From a virus (Duplodnaviria > Caudoviricetes), in IMG/VR virus record IMGVR_UViG_3300042445_001485: 64,000 nt of DNA; one strand, given 5' to 3'. The notes beneath the pieces are model-generated. The model did no database searches. It saw only the letters and a program-made list of their open reading frames with translations, and was not told the DNA's origin. Positions within the stretch are counted from its first letter, which is position 1; the number at the start of each line of letters is the position of its first letter. Position numbers and translations under genes: made by a program. This document shows positions 9,573 to 49,056 of this stretch, piece after piece.

Positions 9573-10311
9573 TATTGTAGATAAACTCAGCCTCGGGTAT
9601 GCGAGTTCGCCCGTCTTTACTGCCCAACACAACAACACGGCGTAATCCTCGTTCTGTTTCTACAGTTAAAACAATGCACCCACCGGCAGCATTTGTGGTT
9701 CCTGTTTTACTTACTATGAACTTATGTTTATGTCCTATTAGGGGATTGGTCTGTTTGAATACTAGCCACTTCTTTTTGTTTTTTATTGTAACCTTAGTCT
9801 TGCCGGCGGCACCAACAATTAAGTAATTTTTTTCGGCTATAGTTAATAGCTTTAACAGGTCTTCGGCTGTGCTGACATTACCAGACGATAAACCCGATGC
9901 ATCTGCAAATCGAGTATTTTCTAATCCGTATTTAATTGCCAGGTCGTTCATTGCTTCTATGCATTTTTTATAACCGCCCAAGTAGTTGTTACACAACACA
10001 TCTGCGGCATGATTGTCACTGCGTACCAATGTTATTTCTATCAACTCCTGCCTTGTTAGTCGAAGTTTTTTATTGTAAGTCAGATGTTGATCCATTAAAG
10101 GACGAGATTCCATTACAGCCAATACAGTCATAATTTTGGTAATACTACCAATGGAACGAACTGTTGTGGTATCTTTACTGGCCAAGATTCGATTGTCGGC
10201 ATCGGCCACAAGCCAGCTTTGTGCAGTGAGATCATTGGTATCAGTGATCAATTTGGCTGTTGCTGTGGTTGCCAAGGAAACAACCACCCATGTGATCCAT
10301 TTCTTCAGCAA
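9565..10311 (-). CDS. D-alanyl-D-alanine carboxypeptidase (peptidase S11, PBP5-like)
   Basis: Intact SxxK (SITK), SxN (SDN) and KTG motifs, hydrophobic signal-like N-terminus; probable TTG start at 10311. Confidence 0.85.
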   Translation of the reverse strand: MLKKWITWVVVSLATTATAKLITDTNDLTAQSWLVADADNRILASKDTTTVRSIGSITKIMTVLAVMESRPLMDQHLTYNKKLRLTRQELIEITLVRSDNHAADVLCNNYLGGYKKCIEAMNDLAIKYGLENTRFADASGLSSGNVSTAEDLLKLLTIAEKNYLIVGAAGKTKVTIKNKKKWLVFKQTNPLIGHKHKFIVSKTGTTNAAGGCIVLTVETERGLRRVVVLGSKDGRTRIPEAEFIYNTN

Positions 10312-10313
10312 TG

Positions 10314-11021
10314 TTAAATTTCCAATTGGTCTATATTTTTTCTTATGTGATCCCAAACACCTGTGGGATTACCATCTTCGAATGTAATAGTAGTGCCAAC
10401 CACATATCTGAAGCCGTCGCCCTGTATAACATGGTGAGCCAACTCTGTTCTTACCAGGGCACTGGGGCATGTAGTAACCGATGAAAATGCAGGTTTGGGT
10501 ATGTTATCCCAGGAGATCTTGCCTTGATGTAGATCTTCTACAAAATCAGCTATGCCTTTGACCCGAATAGGACCTGGGCGCAATGCCAAAGTAATTTTTA
10601 CATCATCTTCACTCCACCAACGAATTGCACCCGGACCGTCGCATAGTTCATAAAACGACATCCTTGCTTCTAATGTTGATACAGTATTGTTCAATCGATC
10701 TTGTTCGGTGAAGTATCCATCTTTGTGTACTGTCCATCCTGTTTGGTTTTTGTTACTTACAAAAGATGTCAAGTTGCGGCACACCAGGCCAATCGGGTTG
10801 AGAAATTTGTTACAGATTGCCAATGTTTTTTGCCACTGTGCTGGGTTTGCAGGCAATACCACATGTCCAACTTTTATATATCCATACTGTTCTCTTAGCT
10901 GGGCAACCGTGGTGTTAATTGCTAGTTCGCGTTCTTCAGGATCAATTCGAAACTGTAACGGTATAAAGTAATCTAAATTGCGTTTAGGCAACTGTGTAAA
11001 ATCATAATCTATGTTGAGCAT
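10314..11021 (-). CDS. Hypothetical cupin/2OG-oxygenase-like protein, tandem copy A
   Basis: VHKDG (HxD) ... LVRTELAHHV...R; paralog of 11041-11760. Confidence 0.55.
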   Translation of the reverse strand: MLNIDYDFTQLPKRNLDYFIPLQFRIDPEERELAINTTVAQLREQYGYIKVGHVVLPANPAQWQKTLAICNKFLNPIGLVCRNLTSFVSNKNQTGWTVHKDGYFTEQDRLNNTVSTLEARMSFYELCDGPGAIRWWSEDDVKITLALRPGPIRVKGIADFVEDLHQGKISWDNIPKPAFSSVTTCPSALVRTELAHHVIQGDGFRYVVGTTITFEDGNPTGVWDHIRKNIDQLEI

Positions 11022-11040
11022 TGAATATTTAGTGATAAGG

Positions 11041-11760
11041 CTAAACTGCCAATTGGTCTATATTTTTTATAATATGGTCCCATACCCCAATTGGATTACC
11101 ATCATCAAATGTAATAGTGAATCCAACAACATATCTAAAACCATCACCTTGTATAACATGATGTGCTAAATTTGTTCTTACTAATGCACTGGGACATGTG
11201 GTCACTGATGAAAATGCAGGTGCTGGTATTTCATTCCAGGAGATCTTGCCTTGCTGTAGATCTTCTACAAAATCGGCATTGCCTTTGACTCGTCTTGGGC
11301 CAATCATTAACCCAGAGTTCACTTCTAGATTAATTTTCACATCATCCTCACTCCACCAACGAATTGCACCCGGGGCTGTAGATAGTCCATAAAATGATAT
11401 CCTTGCCTCCAACGATGAAATTGTGTTGTTTAATCGATCATCATTGGTAAAGTATCCATCTTTGTGTACATTCCAGGCTGTTTGATTTTTGTTGCTGACA
11501 AAGACTGTCACATACCGACTTGCAAGTCCAATTGGATTAAGAAATTTGTTGCAAATTGCAAGGGTTTGGGTCCAGTCGGCCATATTGCCAGCTGACCCAT
11601 AATGACCAGTTTTCTTATGACCTTGGCTTGCTATTGCCCGAGGGACTGTGGTGTTGACTGCTGTGGCATACTCTGCGGGATCTGGCTGCAGATCCATTGG
11701 TATAAAGTAATCTAAATTGCGTTTAGGCAACTCTGTAAAATCATAATCTATGTTGAGCAT
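11041..11760 (-). CDS. Hypothetical cupin/2OG-oxygenase-like protein, tandem copy B
   Basis: Same motifs as copy A; near-identical 5' end. Confidence 0.55.
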   Translation of the reverse strand: MLNIDYDFTELPKRNLDYFIPMDLQPDPAEYATAVNTTVPRAIASQGHKKTGHYGSAGNMADWTQTLAICNKFLNPIGLASRYVTVFVSNKNQTAWNVHKDGYFTNDDRLNNTISSLEARISFYGLSTAPGAIRWWSEDDVKINLEVNSGLMIGPRRVKGNADFVEDLQQGKISWNEIPAPAFSSVTTCPSALVRTNLAHHVIQGDGFRYVVGFTITFDDGNPIGVWDHIIKNIDQLAV

Positions 11761-12401
11761 TGAATATTTAGTTGTTGTACAAAGTCTAAAAGTAATGCGT
11801 GATGTTGCCCATTATGATATCGGTCTCGCATCCATGAGTAACTGTCATACCAAAATTCTTCGCTTTCAGGATGGCAACCAATCAAACCGATATTGTTTTG
11901 TATGATGGCCATGCTGTCACCGTTGGCGTAGGTGGCAATGGTTTTAAATCGTCTATGATCTCCGGTCAAGGTACATCCATCATACCAAAACATATTGATA
12001 GGTTGTCCTTGCCAGGTGATGGGCATGTTCTTGGCATGTGGTCTACGAGTGTCTGAGCCTGGGCGTTTTAAATACTGCACAGCATCAACACCGTCTAAGA
12101 TATCAAGGTAATAACTACCGGCCCAGTATGCACCCATACATATACCCAAATATCTACCACCCTGTTTGACAAATTTTTTCACAGCCGACATGTTGTGTTT
12201 GAACCCAACATCAAAACTGGCTGCGTCTCCAAATCCCCCCGGAACTGCAACTATATCAACATCATCAAAGAAGTTATCTTCAATTTTGTTCTTGCTAAAG
12301 ATTTTGAAATTATAATGATTTTGTAAGGCTCGGATTATGCCATTACCCGACTGTACAGAGCATTTTGGATCATACAAAAATAACGCAATGGTGGGTTTCA
12401 T
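11748..12401 (-). CDS. BPL_N / class I glutamine amidotransferase-like protein
   Basis: VPGGFG, GGRYLGICMGAYWA nucleophile elbow, HPE motif. Confidence 0.8.
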   Translation of the reverse strand: MKPTIALFLYDPKCSVQSGNGIIRALQNHYNFKIFSKNKIEDNFFDDVDIVAVPGGFGDAASFDVGFKHNMSAVKKFVKQGGRYLGICMGAYWAGSYYLDILDGVDAVQYLKRPGSDTRRPHAKNMPITWQGQPINMFWYDGCTLTGDHRRFKTIATYANGDSMAIIQNNIGLIGCHPESEEFWYDSYSWMRDRYHNGQHHALLLDFVQQLNIQCST

Positions 12402-13429: not shown

Positions 13430-13534
13430 ATATGGTTTCTCCATTTAAAATTTAGTAAGGGTTTGCAAGCGTTCTAGGCATTGTATGCTAGTAAAAGGGT
13501 CTCTACCCTAAGCGTTTCGACAGCGTCGTCGTCG

Positions 13535-19239: not shown

Positions 19240-19683
19240 TTACTTTGTGAAAGTAATTGCAATCTTTTTGGGCTTGTCTTCTTCAGGCACTAGTTGTTCT
19301 AGTGCAATAGAAAGAATACCGTTTTTAACAGTGGCCCCACAAACTTCAATATGTTCTGCCAATGGAAATGTGCGAGCAAAATTGCGGGCACTAATACCTT
19401 TGTGTAGGTATTCAACTTCTGTTTCGTCTTTGGCTTTGTCGCCACGGACTGTCAAGATGTTGTCCTTTAGTTCTACATCAATTTCGCTGTCAGCAAAGCC
19501 AGCAACTGCCAACTCAATCACATAGTGTGTGTCGTCAATTTTGATTACATTATGTGGGGGATAGTTGCCATCGCTTTTGCTGTTGGCAAAAGTGCGATTT
19601 AACTGTGCAAACAATTGGTCAAAGCCAATGGCATGACGGTGTAGGCTAGGTAAATCGAGGGTGTGAAGTGTGAATTGTGTCAT
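19240..19683 (-). CDS. Small heat-shock protein (Hsp20/IbpA-like)
   Basis: IGFD, YPPHN, ELAVAGF, YLHKGISARNFARTF and NGILSI motifs. Confidence 0.92.
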   Translation of the reverse strand: MTQFTLHTLDLPSLHRHAIGFDQLFAQLNRTFANSKSDGNYPPHNVIKIDDTHYVIELAVAGFADSEIDVELKDNILTVRGDKAKDETEVEYLHKGISARNFARTFPLAEHIEVCGATVKNGILSIALEQLVPEEDKPKKIAITFTK

Positions 19684-19774: not shown

Positions 19775-20014
19775 TTAATACAACTTTTTTGGTAATTCTT
19801 GGTCACGCAACTTTTTACGCCAACGGGCCTGTGCCGCACCTCGTTTGCGTTTGCGTTCGGTTGTGGGTTTTTCAAAATGTTGGCGTTCTTTTATTTCTTC
19901 AAGTAGTCCCGACTCTTGGATTTTTTTCTTGAATTTGCGTAGAGCTTTATCCACTTGATCATTTTGAACAATTACGCTACATCCGCGAATTGGTTTTGGT
20001 TTGTAATATGACAT
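19775..20014 (-). CDS. rpsU: 30S ribosomal protein bS21
   Basis: V.V.N..VDKALRKFKKK..ESG...E...R.HFEKPTTERKRK pattern. Confidence 0.9.
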   Translation of the reverse strand: MSYYKPKPIRGCSVIVQNDQVDKALRKFKKKIQESGLLEEIKERQHFEKPTTERKRKRGAAQARWRKKLRDQELPKKLY

Positions 20015-38253: not shown

Positions 38254-38990
38254 AGTGTTTTAATAAATCCTGGTAAATCACTTTCCCATACTATCGTTAC
38301 TGTGTAACCAAGTGATTCAAGGTGCTCGACCCTACCTTCGTCCGCTTGCCATTTTTCTTTAGCAGTCATCTTTAATTGAGAATGATAAAAGTCTTCTTTA
38401 AACAAATTTGGGTTGCAATGCCAATAGTCGCCATACACTTCAATGATATGTTTTGTTTCTTCATTTAAGTAATCTGGTTTACATGTTCCTATACGCTTAT
38501 TTGGATAATACCCAGGTAAGAGATTTTCTAATAGTCTTTCTTTTTTGCTTTGCGGAGAAGTTTTAGCAAGGTGTCCAACATTTTCTGTACCGTATCTTTC
38601 AAGATTAGTTTTTTTAACTTTCTCGAAATAACTAGGTTTATGTATCTTTCCTTTAAAATTACCAGGTAGCCCTTTATTCCATGCAACTTGTAATCCCTGT
38701 GTATCTTTATTCCAAGGAGTTCTTCCTTTGCAAGCATTTGACAAGTTTTTAACCCAAGTATCTCTATGCTGTTCTCTAGTAGCATATCGATCGGCATTCC
38801 AAGTTCTAGATTCTGCCATATCTGGATTTCTTTGCCAGTGCAATTTAGCAGAACAAGATTTTGAACAGCACTCTATACCGGAACCCTTTACTAATGTCCC
38901 GCAAATAGGACACGGTTTATGACCTTTTTGGTATCCAGTTTTATTATCTTTTCTCAAAGATATGCCACATCCACATTTACACATATTCAT
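38250..38990 (-). mobile_element. Free-standing homing-type endonuclease (NUMOD3-like repeats + Vsr/DUF559-like nuclease) between iscU and iscA
   Basis: CKCGCG, PWNK/AWNK repeats, KPDY...IEVYGDYWH, LGY.VTIVWE; own TAAATA box. Confidence 0.75.
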
Positions 38991-42627: not shown

Positions 42628-42653
42628 AAAAAAAGCACAGTCGAAACTGTGCT
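42628..42653 (-). terminator. Intrinsic terminator with UUCG tetraloop
   Basis: AGCACAGT-TTCG-ACTGTGCT followed by a T-run on the minus strand. Confidence 0.9.
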
Positions 42654-42676
42654 CTTTTCGTTGAGTTAATTAAAAA

Positions 42677-43048
42677 TTAACCAAAAGTTGCGCCACTTAG
42701 GCCGCTGTAAATAGTCCATGTAGATGTCAAACCATTGGCTGCATCTGCGTCAGTTGCTAGTTTACTAGCAATTGCTGTACCACCACTTTGGTCTGCTGAG
42801 CTATCACCAACTTTAGTTGGCAAACCTTCAACCATGAATACACAGTTATCAGCGGCTGGAGTACCAACTACTGTAATTGTGCAATACTTGGCCAACACAT
42901 TAACTGCCTTTTCAAAGTTGCTGCCTGCTGCCGCATAAGCGGTATGTATACCTGTTGCCGCACATTTTACGAATTTGATATCGCGTCCAACAAATTCACC
43001 GCCTGCGCCGCCAACTGCCCAACCGTTTGTTCTTGTAAATTCTGCCAT
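42677..43048 (-). CDS. Small late virion-like protein, MAEFTRTNG paralog 1
   Basis: Ala/Gly/Thr-rich; own late promoter, strong SD and terminator. Confidence 0.65.
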   Translation of the reverse strand: MAEFTRTNGWAVGGAGGEFVGRDIKFVKCAATGIHTAYAAAGSNFEKAVNVLAKYCTITVVGTPAADNCVFMVEGLPTKVGDSSADQSGGTAIASKLATDADAANGLTSTWTIYSGLSGATFG

Positions 43049-43113
43049 TTTATTTTTCCTTTAAAATATATGGGCTATTCGCCTCATGTAAATATTTATC
43101 ATTTAGACAAAAA
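43023..43113. repeat. Direct repeat copy 1 (promoter + leader + first codons)
   Basis: About 91 bp, near-identical to 43558-43648 (offset 535). Confidence 0.95.
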
Positions 43114-43135
43114 AAGCCCGCTTCATTGCGGGCTT
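43109..43135 (-). terminator. Intrinsic terminator
   Basis: AAGCCCGC-6 nt-GCGGGCTT followed by a T-run on the minus strand. Confidence 0.9.
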
Positions 43136-43157
43136 GTCTTTATGCCAAAAACAACTA

Positions 43158-43583
43158 TTAGGCTAGTTTGATACCGCCAGTTGATGAAACTGTTGCGGCG
43201 CCAACCCAGGTGTTAGCTAGTTTGCCGATGTTACCAGCACCATCACCAGCTGTAGTAGCACGAATGTTGGCTTGCAGGAACGTATCTGTCCAACTTGAAC
43301 GCTCAACAATCACGCTCAACTGTTGATTAGAGTCTGTTTGGTATGCCAAGATCGATGCCTGACCAGCAACGATGCGTAAGATTGTCTCAACTGCACCGCC
43401 GGTTGTTAATTCTGCTGCCAAGTTGCCTGCGCCGCCGCCTGTTGGGATGATACCGGCAATTTTGTATGCTGTGATTGGAGACCCAATGCCTGTGTTGATG
43501 ATGGTTGCGTTGGCGAAAGCACGGCCGCCGCCTACATTGTTAACACCAGCTGAATCGCCGTTTGTTCTTGTAAATTCTGCCAT
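43158..43583 (-). CDS. Small late virion-like protein, MAEFTRTNG paralog 2
   Basis: Same N-terminus and upstream cassette as 42677-43048. Confidence 0.65.
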   Translation of the reverse strand: MAEFTRTNGDSAGVNNVGGGRAFANATIINTGIGSPITAYKIAGIIPTGGGAGNLAAELTTGGAVETILRIVAGQASILAYQTDSNQQLSVIVERSSWTDTFLQANIRATTAGDGAGNIGKLANTWVGAATVSSTGGIKLA

Positions 43584-43648
43584 TTTGTTTTTCCTTTAAG
43601 ATATATGGGCGTATAGCCTCATGTAAATATTTATCATTTAGACAAAAA
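43558..43648. repeat. Direct repeat copy 2
   Basis: Matches 43023-43113 apart from a few substitutions, mostly in the hairpin loop. Confidence 0.95.
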
Positions 43649-44726: not shown

Positions 44727-45550
44727 ATACGATCAGCCATCACCCGGAACCAGTGGGCCGAACCGGCAGCAGGTGCTGATTCTGGAAGTTGTATGCCACT
44801 CTTGCCCAGGGTTTCACGGGCCGCGGCAATGATGGTTTGGTAGTCGGGACGCCGTTGTACAGCCGCAATGATCTTGTCTGCTGACATTAAACTGGCTAAC
44901 GGAATGCCTGTTACTTGGCTCAACATCTGTGGATCCTGGCCGCCTTCTATAGTTTGATTTGTGGCACGGTCAACCAGCCCATGTTTGTAACTCCACTTTA
45001 GTTCAGGAGCAACAGCATTAACTATGCTGGACAATATAATTTGTTTGCTCATGCCAGAGTATTGGTCGCCTTGTCGGGCACCTTTCATGGCAAATGCTTG
45101 CCACTTGGGATCGCCAAACATAAAGTCTGTTTGTGCGAATCCATTTTTGGCATTGCCATTGATGGGTGTTTTAAAGTGTACTGAGTCACCAGTTAACTCA
45201 ATCCAACCTTCTTTCCAAGCAGGAGCCAGTTTTGTTTTGGCACGATTGCGTATTTGGTCTGGGGGAATACCTTGTTGCTGACACCAACGGCTCAGTACAT
45301 CTGCCAATACTTCTTTGGTAATGGCCTTGTCGTCAACTGCTAGATCCAAGTCTCCGCTGTCGTCTTTGCGTCCTGTGCTTCCTAGCCATTTGGTAGGAAC
45401 ATCTTCTTCGTCCCGTTCTTCACTGAAATCCAATCCAGTGATTTTTTCTAGCCAGGCAATGGTGGTAGGAATTTCAGCACGAACAATGCGACGAGTGAGT
45501 TCAGCACCCTCGGCATTTTTAAATATGTTTCCACCTTCAGTTAACATCAT
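44723..45550 (-). CDS. Pol-beta superfamily nucleotidyltransferase-like protein
   Basis: LGSTGRKDDSGDLDLAVD (GS...DxD) and a third acid in QTDFM. Confidence 0.65.
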   Translation of the reverse strand: MMLTEGGNIFKNAEGAELTRRIVRAEIPTTIAWLEKITGLDFSEERDEEDVPTKWLGSTGRKDDSGDLDLAVDDKAITKEVLADVLSRWCQQQGIPPDQIRNRAKTKLAPAWKEGWIELTGDSVHFKTPINGNAKNGFAQTDFMFGDPKWQAFAMKGARQGDQYSGMSKQIILSSIVNAVAPELKWSYKHGLVDRATNQTIEGGQDPQMLSQVTGIPLASLMSADKIIAAVQRRPDYQTIIAAARETLGKSGIQLPESAPAAGSAHWFRVMADRI

Positions 45551-48500
45551 ACTCGTTCTTTCATTTTGCGTAACAATGCGGCACTAAAGTCAATGCCGGC
45601 TGTAAGTACAGGTTCTGGTTGTTTTACACCGCCACCGTTTAGTTTGGTCTGCTGGAATCCTGGTACTGCTGGAGCAGTTTGTTGTGCTTTTTTAGCGGCT
45701 TGGTCTTTCCTGAACTGATCCAAATCCAATGTGGTACCTTGTGGCTCTGGTTGTGCCGGTTGTGTAGTGGCATTGGTAGTGACAGGTACTGCCGGTTTGG
45801 TCACAGCAGGAACACCTGTGGGCGCATTGATTGTGGTCTTGCCATAGCCAGTCATTTGTTTGCTGAAGTCTGGTGTGGGCTGTGCAGGACCGCCTGCGGG
45901 TGGTGTGCCCAACTGCTTGGTCATGCGGTTCATCACATCGTTGGTGGCTGTTTGAGCTTGCTGTGTAGAAGCAGCCATTTGTCCCTGCGCCGCTGTTGCG
46001 GCATCGGCTTGCTTGGCCTTGCGAATGTCTTCTGGGCTCTGTCCAGCCGGTGTTGTAGTTGCGGCCGGAGGTGTTGCACCTGTTTTGGCCCGGTTTTTAG
46101 CAATAGATTTCTCTGTTGCATCAACTGTGCCGTCTTTGTTAAGATCGCGTGGATCCAATTTGGCAGGTGCTTGCTGTGTTGTTGCCGGAGGTGCGGCATC
46201 TGGCTGTTGCGCCAGTGGTTTGCCTGTTTCTGTATCAAACTTCTGACCTGGTTTGATGGGTTTGCCGTCGCTTTGTGTACCAAGGTCGGGAGGTGTTGCA
46301 CCTGTTGCAGGCGCTGTTTGTCCTGCTTGTTGTGTGCCACCCGGGGCTTGTTGTACTTGTGCAATTAACTTGGCACTGGCTGGATCTTTGGGATCTAATT
46401 TCTGACCACCAATTGATATTGGCTCCGCTTTGGCCGAGGCGGCAGGAGCCGTTGTGGCTACTGGTTCTTGTGCTGTTTGCTGTGCAGGTGTTTTTGCCTT
46501 GGTCAAGGCCGCTTGCTGTTCTGCTTGTTTGGCCAACATGGCCGCTATGGCAGATGGTACTTCTTTGTTTTCTGTATCGTACCATTTGTTTCCAACTTTT
46601 TTGTAGGCATGATCTTGGCCATATTCGTCTTTGATCTTGACTGAGTCTCGGCCTGCGCCCTCGCCTCCGGGTGCGTAGGCACCGCGTACTAGACTCTGTC
46701 CACCGGCGCCCATGCCCTTGCCCGACTGCACAGCTCTATTTAAATCGTTAACAGTGTCTGCAACCGCTGTGCCGCCTGTGTTGACGGCAGATCCCATATT
46801 ATCCAGGCTTTTTTGGTAGTTACTTGTCCTGCGATCGGAGGTGGTAACATCATTGCCGGTGTCTGTGGTACCCTGTGCTGTGGCGGATGCAGAACCAGGT
46901 GCCGCAGGTCCTTGTGATCTTGGAGTTGAGCGAGGTGCTACTCCGTATGCTTGCGGTGCCGCCCCTTGACCATAACTGGGTTGTTGTCCTTGTGGATCTT
47001 GGCCCGGCTGTGCATCTTGTTTTGCATAGGGATTGGCTTCGCCTGTGGCGCCAACTGCGTCTCCGGCTTGACTGGTACGAGCTGAATCAAAGCCGGTTTC
47101 TTGGCCTTTGGCAAATGCATCTTTGGTGCCGGCAATGGCTCCTTTGACTCCACCAATTGCGCCACCAATTGCTCCAGCGGCCTTGCCCAATAAACCTTGT
47201 CCGGGTGCTTTTGCTGGTGCTTCTGGTGCCGCTGTCACCGTGCTGGCACCTGCAGGTAATCCCAGATTTTGAAACACTTGGTCTACAGTTTCTTGCGGAA
47301 CTCCAGCACTGACCATGATGCCGGCAACTTGTCCCGAATCTGTGGGGTTGCCGGCCTTCTTCCAGGCCTGTTGCAGTTTGTCTGCTGTGACCTTGTTGGT
47401 CACATTACCGGCCTTGGTCTTTAACCAATTGCCGGCTTTCTTAAACATGTCACCAATGCCAGCTTCGGTCAAGTGTATGTTGCCACGAGGCTTGCCAACG
47501 CTTTCACGGATGTACCACATGCGGGCTGTTAGCTCGTAGTCCACATATTCGTTAATGGCCGCTACTGGGCTATGTCCTGATCTTAATAAGATACCGTTAG
47601 CCCGGGCCGCCGCTTTGTTGGCCCAATAGTTTTGTGCATTTTGTGTACCTTGGGCATCATCGGCGGCTTGCTGTTGTTGTTTTGCTGTAACTGCGGCCTG
47701 TTGGTCCGGAGTCATTTGATCCCAGGTTGGTGCAGGTTCAAATGGTTTTCCTGTTAATCTATTAGTGTCCGGCTGAGTTGCCGCGGCAGCACTGGTATCG
47801 GTTGGTGCAGGAATAGCTCCTGTATCAACTTTGTTTTGAACCATCTTGTTCAAATCAACTTGTTGTTGTCCAGCATTGGGATTGATGGGAGCTTCACCAC
47901 CTTGGTTTGGTTGTTCGCCACCAAATTGTTTCATATAGCCAGGAGACGAATTTCCACCAGATCGTTCAATTGGTGTACCATCGGGAAAAGTATCTTTACC
48001 CACTATTGGATTAGGGCTTCGTGCCTGTCCATCCCAGCCTTTGCCCGGCCCCGAATCAAATGCGCCCAAGTCCGTGCTGGATTTTAAATCATTGCTTACA
48101 GCAATATCCTGTAGTTGTGCACCGGGCATTCCGGTTGTTTGTTCAATTCTTGCTCGCTCTGCTGGATCGGCATTGATCCATTCTTGTGCGGCTTTGATAT
48201 CAACACTTTGATTTTGTGCTTGGGCATCCACTGGTAATTCACCGGTTGTTGCTTGCTGTTGTGCTTCTGCACCCCGATTCTGCATGTATGCTTGAGCACC
48301 TTGTGCCACTGCTCCGGCTATACCACCGCCTGCGGCGCCAAGTCCGGCGCCCATGGCACCTTGCTTCAATGCACCTGTTAGGCCTTGACCTTGCATGAGT
48401 CCTCTAACAGCACCTGTCAGGCCACCCACCACAGTACCTGTTAAAGCACCTGTGGCTGCCATACCTAGGCCTAGTCCAGCAATGGCAGGACCAGCCACCA

Positions 48501-49056
48501 CAGTGGCAATGCCAGCAATACCTGCCAACACCAGGGTCTGTACCGCAGGATTCTTGGCAGCCTGTTTGACCAAGTCCATTAGACTTTTCTTGGCTTTGGG
48601 GTCTTGTACCTGTGCAATTTGTTCTTGTGCTTTTTGTTCAAATCCCTCAACAGGACCTGCATCTGCAGGCGGCAAACTCTGTACCAGTTTGTCTTTGTTT
48701 TGTGCCAATAATTTGTTGGCAAGTTCTTTGACACCCGACGCACCTTTTTTGGCTAGATCAACTGCACCCGCACCAACTGCACCCGCGGCATCTGCGCCCT
48801 TGCCCAACATGCTACGATTGTCTCCGCCAGCTGTGGCAATCTTTTCTGCTGATCCAAATGCGTTTTGAATCTGCTGTGCGGTCATTGCCGCTTCTGTTAG
48901 GATATCAATATTATTAATGCTGGCAATAAATGGTAGGGTAAAATTCTCACGCACCTTCTGCATATAACCCGTAGTCTTAGGATCCATACCTGCTGTCAAG
49001 CGTGAATACATTTTGGTTTCGTATAGTCGTTGTTCTAGGATAATGCTGGGTTTCAT
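45547..49056 (-). CDS. Large low-complexity Ala/Gln/Pro/Gly-rich protein (possible internal virion protein)
   Basis: 1169 aa with hydrophobic Gly/Ala helices and long disordered tracts. Confidence 0.6.
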   Translation of the reverse strand: MKPSIILEQRLYETKMYSRLTAGMDPKTTGYMQKVRENFTLPFIASINNIDILTEAAMTAQQIQNAFGSAEKIATAGGDNRSMLGKGADAAGAVGAGAVDLAKKGASGVKELANKLLAQNKDKLVQSLPPADAGPVEGFEQKAQEQIAQVQDPKAKKSLMDLVKQAAKNPAVQTLVLAGIAGIATVVAGPAIAGLGLGMAATGALTGTVVGGLTGAVRGLMQGQGLTGALKQGAMGAGLGAAGGGIAGAVAQGAQAYMQNRGAEAQQQATTGELPVDAQAQNQSVDIKAAQEWINADPAERARIEQTTGMPGAQLQDIAVSNDLKSSTDLGAFDSGPGKGWDGQARSPNPIVGKDTFPDGTPIERSGGNSSPGYMKQFGGEQPNQGGEAPINPNAGQQQVDLNKMVQNKVDTGAIPAPTDTSAAAATQPDTNRLTGKPFEPAPTWDQMTPDQQAAVTAKQQQQAADDAQGTQNAQNYWANKAAARANGILLRSGHSPVAAINEYVDYELTARMWYIRESVGKPRGNIHLTEAGIGDMFKKAGNWLKTKAGNVTNKVTADKLQQAWKKAGNPTDSGQVAGIMVSAGVPQETVDQVFQNLGLPAGASTVTAAPEAPAKAPGQGLLGKAAGAIGGAIGGVKGAIAGTKDAFAKGQETGFDSARTSQAGDAVGATGEANPYAKQDAQPGQDPQGQQPSYGQGAAPQAYGVAPRSTPRSQGPAAPGSASATAQGTTDTGNDVTTSDRRTSNYQKSLDNMGSAVNTGGTAVADTVNDLNRAVQSGKGMGAGGQSLVRGAYAPGGEGAGRDSVKIKDEYGQDHAYKKVGNKWYDTENKEVPSAIAAMLAKQAEQQAALTKAKTPAQQTAQEPVATTAPAASAKAEPISIGGQKLDPKDPASAKLIAQVQQAPGGTQQAGQTAPATGATPPDLGTQSDGKPIKPGQKFDTETGKPLAQQPDAAPPATTQQAPAKLDPRDLNKDGTVDATEKSIAKNRAKTGATPPAATTTPAGQSPEDIRKAKQADAATAAQGQMAASTQQAQTATNDVMNRMTKQLGTPPAGGPAQPTPDFSKQMTGYGKTTINAPTGVPAVTKPAVPVTTNATTQPAQPEPQGTTLDLDQFRKDQAAKKAQQTAPAVPGFQQTKLNGGGVKQPEPVLTAGIDFSAALLRKMKERV

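Follow-up and report, generated by a model that had tools for sequence, protein, structure and literature searches.

A conserved leader combining a late-type promoter box, a hairpin and an upstream AUG in phages of lake water

Two adjacent genes of a virus contig raise the question of why distant paralogues should be preceded by nearly the same leader, and of what this leader might do. The contig, IMG/VR record IMGVR_UViG_3300042445_001485 (Duplodnaviria; Caudoviricetes), was analysed over a stretch of 64,000 nucleotides (nt), hereafter the window, which is part of a large uncultured lake-water phage. The genes, called A and B, lie side by side on the minus strand and have their first nine codons in common (MAEFTRTNG). 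An earlier note on this DNA had described, before each of them, an eight-codon upstream open reading frame (uORF) that overlaps a hairpin and stops on the Shine-Dalgarno (SD) sequence of the main gene, and had likened the hairpin to the coat-protein operator of phage MS2. Judged by its conservation in related phages, the leader is a real cis-acting element that combines a late-promoter leader, a 5' stem-loop and a 5' upstream AUG (uAUG). Held against the refuting condition named in the earlier note, the outcome is divided: the stem and the AUG are retained among homologous leaders, and the frame of the uORF is lost freely.

The shared layout reported earlier is found exactly in both copies (Table 1). 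In each, GATAAATA is followed by TTTAC, ATG-A-GGC, a 5-nt loop, GCC-CAT, an A/T-rich run, TAA-AGGA, 8 nt and the main ATG. A repeat search showed the copies to be 93% identical over 91 nt, with four of the six differences falling in the 5-nt loop. Folding bore out the bulged-A hairpin, both copies adopting the structure (((.(((.....)))))) with z-scores of -2.1 (A) and -3.4 (B) on 27-nt pieces. Given these values and the folding energies in Table 1, the window hairpin is small and only moderately stable. The predicted pairing leaves the 5' AUG unpaired about 40% of the time and the SD unpaired with a probability of 0.80. The 17-mer TAAATATTTACATGAGG occurs nowhere in the window outside copies A and B, and a covariance model of the leader, run over the whole window, recovered only these two copies. 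Outside the window, the leader occurs only before members of the gene A/B family. Thus, the 'portable' cassette of the earlier note is too strong a term; what stands is a conserved expression leader common to both paralogous genes, with a promoter-like box at a fixed distance from the AUG.

Relatives were gathered from IMG/VR by a protein search together with a DNA pattern, and 80 of the 193 matching stretches were taken in. The main comparison comprised 62 distinct homologous leaders from lake phage contigs; the covariance model was built on 34 leaders and recovered 93 copies in 84 loci. TAAATA is invariant in all 62 leaders, with A before it in 50 and C in 12, and the gap between TAAATA and the AUG is always 5 nt, although the 5 nt themselves vary. 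The base immediately before the AUG, position -1, is C or T throughout. Numbering from the predicted +1, we found A at +1 in 62/62, U at +2 in 60/62 and G at +3 in 61/62 leaders. Every leader has an SD containing GGA (AAGGA or AGGAG), separated from the main AUG by 7-10 nt and in most cases by 8, so that the main gene always has an SD of its own, as an SD-led mRNA with a 5' uAUG should. Upstream of the box, two leader alignments revealed no conserved columns; some of the leaders simply have a loose T-run there.

The hairpin is genuine, as supported by covariation. In 33 distinct main-type leaders, pairing is found in 95% of cells, compared with 24-44% when the 3' partners are slid, and double changes occur in three of the four upper-stem pairs (AU/GC, CG/UA/UG and CG/GC). 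The three pairs of the AUG:CAU base show no covariation. In a deeper clade, whose proteins begin with MPIGVT or MAIGVT, there is no bulge, the stem is UGCG/CGCA, and the 3' side reads CAA, which leaves the A of the AUG unpaired; the AUG is nonetheless kept. Thus, the AUG strand is the side under sequence constraint. The hairpin spans the first 18-22 nt of the predicted RNA and ends 10-20 nt before the SD.

Other parts of the hairpin vary. At the bulge (+4), 34 of the 62 leaders have C, 18 have U and 10 have A; in one clade this base is paired, so that no bulge forms. Between bulge and loop there are 3-6 pairs in the relatives, and the loops are 4-7 nt long and free in sequence. The loop of relative L001 (GTATA; L001:2588-2650, minus strand) is the exact reverse complement of the copy A loop (TATAC, 43611-43615), with identical stems, and the copy B loop, GAATA, differs from GTATA by a single change. 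Much of the loop difference between the window copies thus probably reflects one flip at the DNA level plus one substitution. An attenuator made of the hairpin and a U-run was considered and dropped, as many relatives are devoid of a U-run.

The box in front of the hairpin fits a T4-type late promoter, being TATAAATA-like and without a -35 element. In T4, the late consensus TATAAATA occupies positions -13 to -6, and CTAAATA variants are known, for example in phage Aeh1 (PMC1524935). With this geometry, the predicted +1 is the A of the 5' AUG, where we infer that transcription starts. The leaders resemble T4-type late promoters in the box, including TATAAATA, CATAAATA, GATAAATA and GCTAAATA variants, in having no conserved -35 element and in the fixed distance; they differ in that no gp55 or gp33 homologue was found in the sequence available here, which consists of genome fragments.

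The same geometry recurs in the window without an SD, which lends this start independent support. TAAATA-N5-ATG begins full-length, SD-less ORFs at 38990, 34710 and 35496 (the latter on the plus strand), and with N4 in place of N5 the arrangement opens further such ORFs at 20014, 11760 and 11021; these ORFs have 79-246 codons. These ORFs are candidates for leaderless late mRNAs. An ATG at N5 is found in 5 of the 39 coding-strand TAAATA boxes, with about 0.7 expected by chance according to our estimate. Many other window genes have TTGACA-17-TATAAT, then 6 nt, then ATG (e.g. at 2030 and 18383). Such gene starts make it clear that leaderless mRNAs are produced by this phage, in which an AUG at the 5' terminus would serve as a start signal.

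Related arrangements were noticed elsewhere in the window. At 13558-13535, minus strand, TAAATA-N5-ATG opens a seven-codon ORF (MQTPTQC) upstream of a gene for a 323-residue protein at 13444, which makes it a third candidate leader with a 5'-terminal uAUG. The leader of a 147-residue protein gene at 19683 (approximately 19756-19684, minus strand) reads TATAATAAATAAAC, then ATGTAGCGCCC-ATTAT-GGGGCTACAT, then TTAAAGGAG-ATG. Its design is analogous, with an AUG-UAG...CAU hairpin and then a strong SD, but its sequence is unrelated, and the covariance model matches its SD part only (22.5 bits). Lastly, two tandem paralogous genes in 10310-11772 (235 and 239 residues), with DNA blocks that are 76-99% identical (repeat families D1, D2 and D6), each start 4 nt after CTAAATA.

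We read the leader, with belief and doubt about evenly balanced, as a device for high expression that unites a late box, a 5'-terminal hairpin shielding the RNA end, a 5' AUG able to bind ribosomes and a strong SD. From the (N)ATAAATA box, which is of the T4 late type, RNA polymerase would be guided to a start 6 nt further on, at the first base of the AUG. The first nucleotides of the RNA, up to the end of the AUG:CAU base, would then fold into the hairpin whose pairing is shown by covariation. As this leaves no free 5' tail, the hairpin may shield the RNA from decay that depends on the 5' end, by analogy with ompA-type leaders. Since the stem is weak, it would also open, and the 5'-terminal AUG may then bind ribosomes as on leaderless mRNAs. 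What follows the AUG, often UAG, would be immaterial. Each unit would be completed by the A/U-rich spacer, the strong SD, set 8 nt ahead of the main AUG, and an intrinsic terminator.

Two known kinds of leader bear on this reading. The 5' hairpins of the ompA type are 5'-terminal stabilizing stem-loops. The leaders described here are like them in that the hairpin lies at, or within one nt of, the RNA 5' end and the gene is expected to be highly expressed; here, however, a much smaller and weaker hairpin is closed by a base of fixed sequence, and the 5' end is a predicted one. In Escherichia coli, 5'-terminal AUGs on SD-led mRNAs bind 70S ribosomes (Beck, Fleming & Janssen 2016, PMC4965119). 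For ptrB, the support that the AUG gives to downstream expression is partly independent of uORF translation, and a start-stop version partly restores this expression (PMC4965119). This result fits a leader that keeps the AUG while the ORF behind it is free. The present leaders share with the E. coli mRNAs an AUG at the (here predicted) 5' end and a normal SD-led gene, but here the AUG follows a phage late-type box and, conserved in about 60 divergent leaders, closes the base of a hairpin that is itself conserved.

A further possibility, which we consider rather unlikely, is that the AUG in its breathing hairpin, often with a stop codon right behind it (AUG-UAG), acts as a dedicated landing pad that captures 70S ribosomes at the RNA end and passes them to the SD-led start 35-40 nt downstream. 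If so, late phage mRNAs would gain both protection and a translational advantage in a phage with many leaderless mRNAs. If transcription does start at the AUG, these phages would provide a naturally conserved mRNA that is both leaderless-type and SD-led, a design for which there have so far been mainly isolated E. coli transcripts whose significance is unclear. As hairpin, AUG, bulge and start-stop variants all exist in nature, the leaders are also a compact natural test bed for the roles of a 5' AUG and a 5' hairpin in mRNA stability and ribosome loading.

Four RNA libraries, small lake metatranscriptomes of 35-65 million letters, yielded contigs that match gene B and its leader at 92-93% with about 10x word depth (window 42629-43115). 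This depth over a relative of gene B is a weak hint of high expression, DNA carry-over being possible. One contig stops in the T-run of the gene B terminator, at 42629, again a weak hint. Some contigs break in the variable hairpin loop, probably an effect of assembly; as assembled sequences, the contigs are uninformative on the RNA start site.

Several points weigh against the high-expression reading. The start at the AUG is deduced from the fixed distance between box and AUG and from SD-less ORFs of equal geometry, and stabilization and ribosome binding are proposed purely by analogy. The hairpin is weak, with -3 to -7.5 kcal/mol, and an AUG inside a stem is unfavourable for leaderless initiation. 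The 5' AUG is not indispensable, as it has been lost from 3 of the 62 leaders (ATA once, AAG twice) that still have a hairpin. A search for a gp55-like sigma factor with phrog_234 gave no match in five partial relatives (7-35% complete), and a phmmer comparison of T4 gp55 with all ORFs of the window, itself a genome fragment, gave at best E 0.009 and 10 bits. Finally, the RNA-library contigs of the gene B relative extend past the predicted start into the upstream gene, which may reflect read-through or DNA.

One alternative is a protein-bound operator. A phage protein, possibly A or B, would bind the AUG, the bulge and the lower stem and thereby control translation or stability. In line with this, the lower stem, AUG-N-RG...CY-CAU, is conserved in sequence beyond its pairing, a 5' bulge is found throughout the main clade, and both leaders of one genome have the same hairpin type. 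The model of protein A is ferredoxin-like and its best matches include RRM domains, with Z values of 6-6.8, which reflect a common arrangement. Nevertheless, the bulge can be A, U or C, the upper stem and the loop are free to vary within the ranges given above, one loop is an exact inversion of another, and one clade is bulgeless. Moreover, the hairpin covers neither the SD nor the main AUG, and the window proteins A and B have no match in Pfam or PHROGs, and no RNA-binding family was detected in them. We therefore regard an operator as unlikely.

Translational coupling, the first mechanism put forward in the earlier note, supposes that ribosomes translate the leaderless mini-ORF to its end at or beside the SD and then start anew from the main AUG. 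It draws on the window itself, where both mini-ORFs end in TAA directly before AGGA, and on the leaderless starts that the phage plainly uses. Six of the 59 AUG-bearing leaders share this TAA-on-SD layout and four have their stop 1 nt before the main AUG. In the whole set, however, the uORF has a single codon (AUG-UAG) in 18 leaders, two in 19 and 3-12 in the rest, with eight codons in six leaders; it is thus no longer than two codons in 37/59, and the distance from its stop to the main AUG ranges between 1 and 36 nt. Between otherwise near-identical leaders of close relatives, U or C at the bulge switches AUG-UAG to AUG-CAG. Length and frame of the uORF are kept, as had been claimed, only between the near-identical window copies, and an eight-codon uORF with its stop on the SD is not a conserved layout. 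The variable lengths and stop positions and the AUG-UAG/AUG-CAG flips indicate that the peptide, length, frame and stop-on-SD of the mini-ORF are not selected. The SD is also predicted to be accessible without unmasking. Coupling is thus improbable.

A model of the T4 gene e type, in which read-through RNA masks the SD and a late start frees it, was also tried and rejected, because the SD is unpaired with a probability of 0.80 in short and 0.70 in long RNAs, with no consistent masking.

Also improbable are explanations at the level of DNA, in which the ATG and the inverted repeat take part in promoter or start recognition, or the hairpin lies between the elements of a sigma-70-type promoter whose start site is close to the SD. 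A pyrimidine at -1 and an A at +1 in all leaders would suit a promoter element, and sigma-70-like matches span both hairpins: TTTACA-16-TATATT (10/12; 43092-43065, minus strand) in copy B and TTTACA-18-TATCTT (9/12; 43627-43598, minus strand) in copy A. The loop inversion described above shows that the inverted repeat is active as DNA. However, the ATG is not a general promoter requirement, as other TAAATA boxes of the window precede AAG, ACA or TAC. The sigma-70-like matches are probably fortuitous, since a start 7 nt past TATATT would fall inside the strictly conserved SD, and a sigma-70 scan found 5 sites compared with 2.4 expected in shuffles, which is not significant. The compensatory changes in the stem favour pairing over a mere spacer.

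An MS2-type coat-protein operator has practically no chance of being correct. To be recognized by the MS2 coat protein, a hairpin requires a loop of 4 nt in which A residues are fixed, with a bulged purine two base pairs beneath it. The window copies share ACAUGAGG and CCCAU with the MS2 replicase operator as quoted in the earlier note, an identity of 8 + 5 nucleotides by chance, as well as a bulged A. Yet the loop is 5 nt long in the window and 4-7 nt long in relatives, 3-6 pairs separate it from the bulge, most relatives have U or C as the bulged base, and the relatives lose the MS2-like letters. The variation among leaders in the bulge base and in the length and sequence of the loop, and the inversion of one loop relative to another, contradict this operator. 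Its hairpin would contain the regulated start, whereas here neither SD nor start lies in the hairpin, and the phage is a large DNA phage in which no coat-like protein was seen. The likeness, which the earlier note allowed might be coincidence, is just that on the present comparison.

Comparisons with RNA families gave one informative neighbour. No Rfam family reached its gathering score in the window or in 19 relatives, and the terminator accounts for the subthreshold matches to Trp_leader, MicC and families like them. RF02980 (freshwater-2), a candidate cis-regulatory motif from freshwater metagenomes, matches the window leaders at 25.2 and 20.8 bits against a gathering score of 49.9, in the correct orientation and aligned so that the main AUG falls in register. 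These matches rest on the terminator and the SD region, and the second hairpin is deleted in the alignment. True members of freshwater-2 also follow a TAAATA box and end in AAGGAGAAAACAA-AUG, but their UUAUGCGG/CCGCGUA hairpin and further hairpins are missing from the window leaders. They are also longer, precede genes for MGRP... proteins, and have 30-40 nt between box and AUG, which places the AUG away from the RNA end.

In IMG/VR contigs, the freshwater-2 motif (UUAUGCGG-loop-CCGCGUA with flanking hairpins) is located about 25-40 nt after (G/A)ATAAATA(C) and before the AAGGAGAAAACAA-ATG of MGRP(L/I) genes (L095-L212, e.g. L096, L101 and L123). An SD and an ATG lie within 60 nt downstream in 94 of 120 pattern matches. 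With the box upstream and the SD-ATG downstream, freshwater-2 seems to be a structured leader at the 5' end of a late gene of aquatic phages.

The presence of two leaders per genome is not peculiar to the window, as the leader precedes both A and B genes in at least 12 relatives as well. The leaders of such pairs are 73-93% identical within a genome, and the protein bodies 20-26% identical. In L003 and L004, the B leader is nearly identical to the A leader of the window, while their own A leader differs. This points to shared constraint together with gene conversion over a tract that would extend from the box as far as codon 9. In the window, the near identity of the two copies would reflect an old arrangement kept similar by shared constraint and, probably, gene conversion.

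The window genes are almost all on one strand and include those for ribonucleotide reductase, a primase, a DnaB-type helicase and radical SAM enzymes. A search of GenBank phage DNA with the leader and gene region gave 0 matches. Gene A has 223 homologues at E<=0.001, on contigs of up to 366 kb, and all of these homologues lack both a functional name and a Pfam domain. The model of protein A (predicted local distance difference test score 72.7) shows a ferredoxin-like alpha/beta fold with an N-terminus that is disordered yet conserved. Foldseek found nothing below E 0.001 in the PDB, the matches in BFVD are uncharacterized phage proteins only, a VIA wide search returned generic ferredoxin/RRM-like folds at Z <= 6.8, and the ESM Atlas gave no usable match. 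As an intrinsic terminator ends each gene, A and B appear to be separate transcription units. Their proteins are probable top-expressed late products of uncultured giant lake phages.

Table 1. Coordinates of the leaders, genes and terminators of the A and B units in the window.
Feature	Position	Strand	Remarks
Leader repeat copy A, promoter box to codon 9 of gene A	43558..43648	-	91-nt direct repeat; covariance-model match 67.1 bits
Leader repeat copy B, promoter box to codon 9 of gene B	43023..43113	-	91-nt direct repeat; covariance-model match 71.4 bits
Promoter box A, GATAAATA	43628..43635 (TAAATA 43633-43628)	-	T4-late-type; TAAATA in 62/62 homologous leaders
Promoter box B, GATAAATA	43093..43100 (TAAATA 43098-43093)	-	Same basis as box A
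Hairpin A, AUG-A-GGC UAUAC GCC-CAU	43605..43622	-	Starts at predicted +1; minimum free energy -5.3 kcal/mol; covariation in relatives
Hairpin B, AUG-A-GGC GAAUA GCC-CAU	43070..43087	-	Minimum free energy -6.3 kcal/mol, z -3.4; covariation in relatives
Mini-ORF A, ATG AGG CTA TAC GCC CAT ATA TCT TAA (MRLYAHIS, stop)	43596..43622 (ATG 43622-43620)	-	Not conserved as ORF
Mini-ORF B (MRRIAHIF, stop)	43061..43087 (ATG 43087-43085)	-	Not conserved as ORF
SD AAGGA, gene A	43592..43596 (AGGA 43595-43592)	-	8 nt before main ATG 43583
SD AAGGA, gene B	43057..43061 (AGGA 43060-43057)	-	Main ATG 43048
Gene A	43158..43583	-	141 residues, MAEFTRTNGD...; large uncharacterized lake-phage family
Gene B	42677..43048	-	123 residues, MAEFTRTNGW...; distant paralogue of A, 31% identity (alignment)
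Intrinsic terminator of gene A	43107..43135	-	AAGCCCGC..GCGGGCTT + T-run; abuts leader B
Intrinsic terminator of gene B	42628..42653	-	AGCACAGT TTCG ACTGTGCT + T7

Directly 5' of gene A lie two coupled genes, which code for a 275-residue protein with no family match and a 354-residue protein of the DUF6267 family. Upstream of these two genes, at 45547-49056 on the minus strand, a 1169-residue low-complexity protein rich in A, Q, G and P is encoded.

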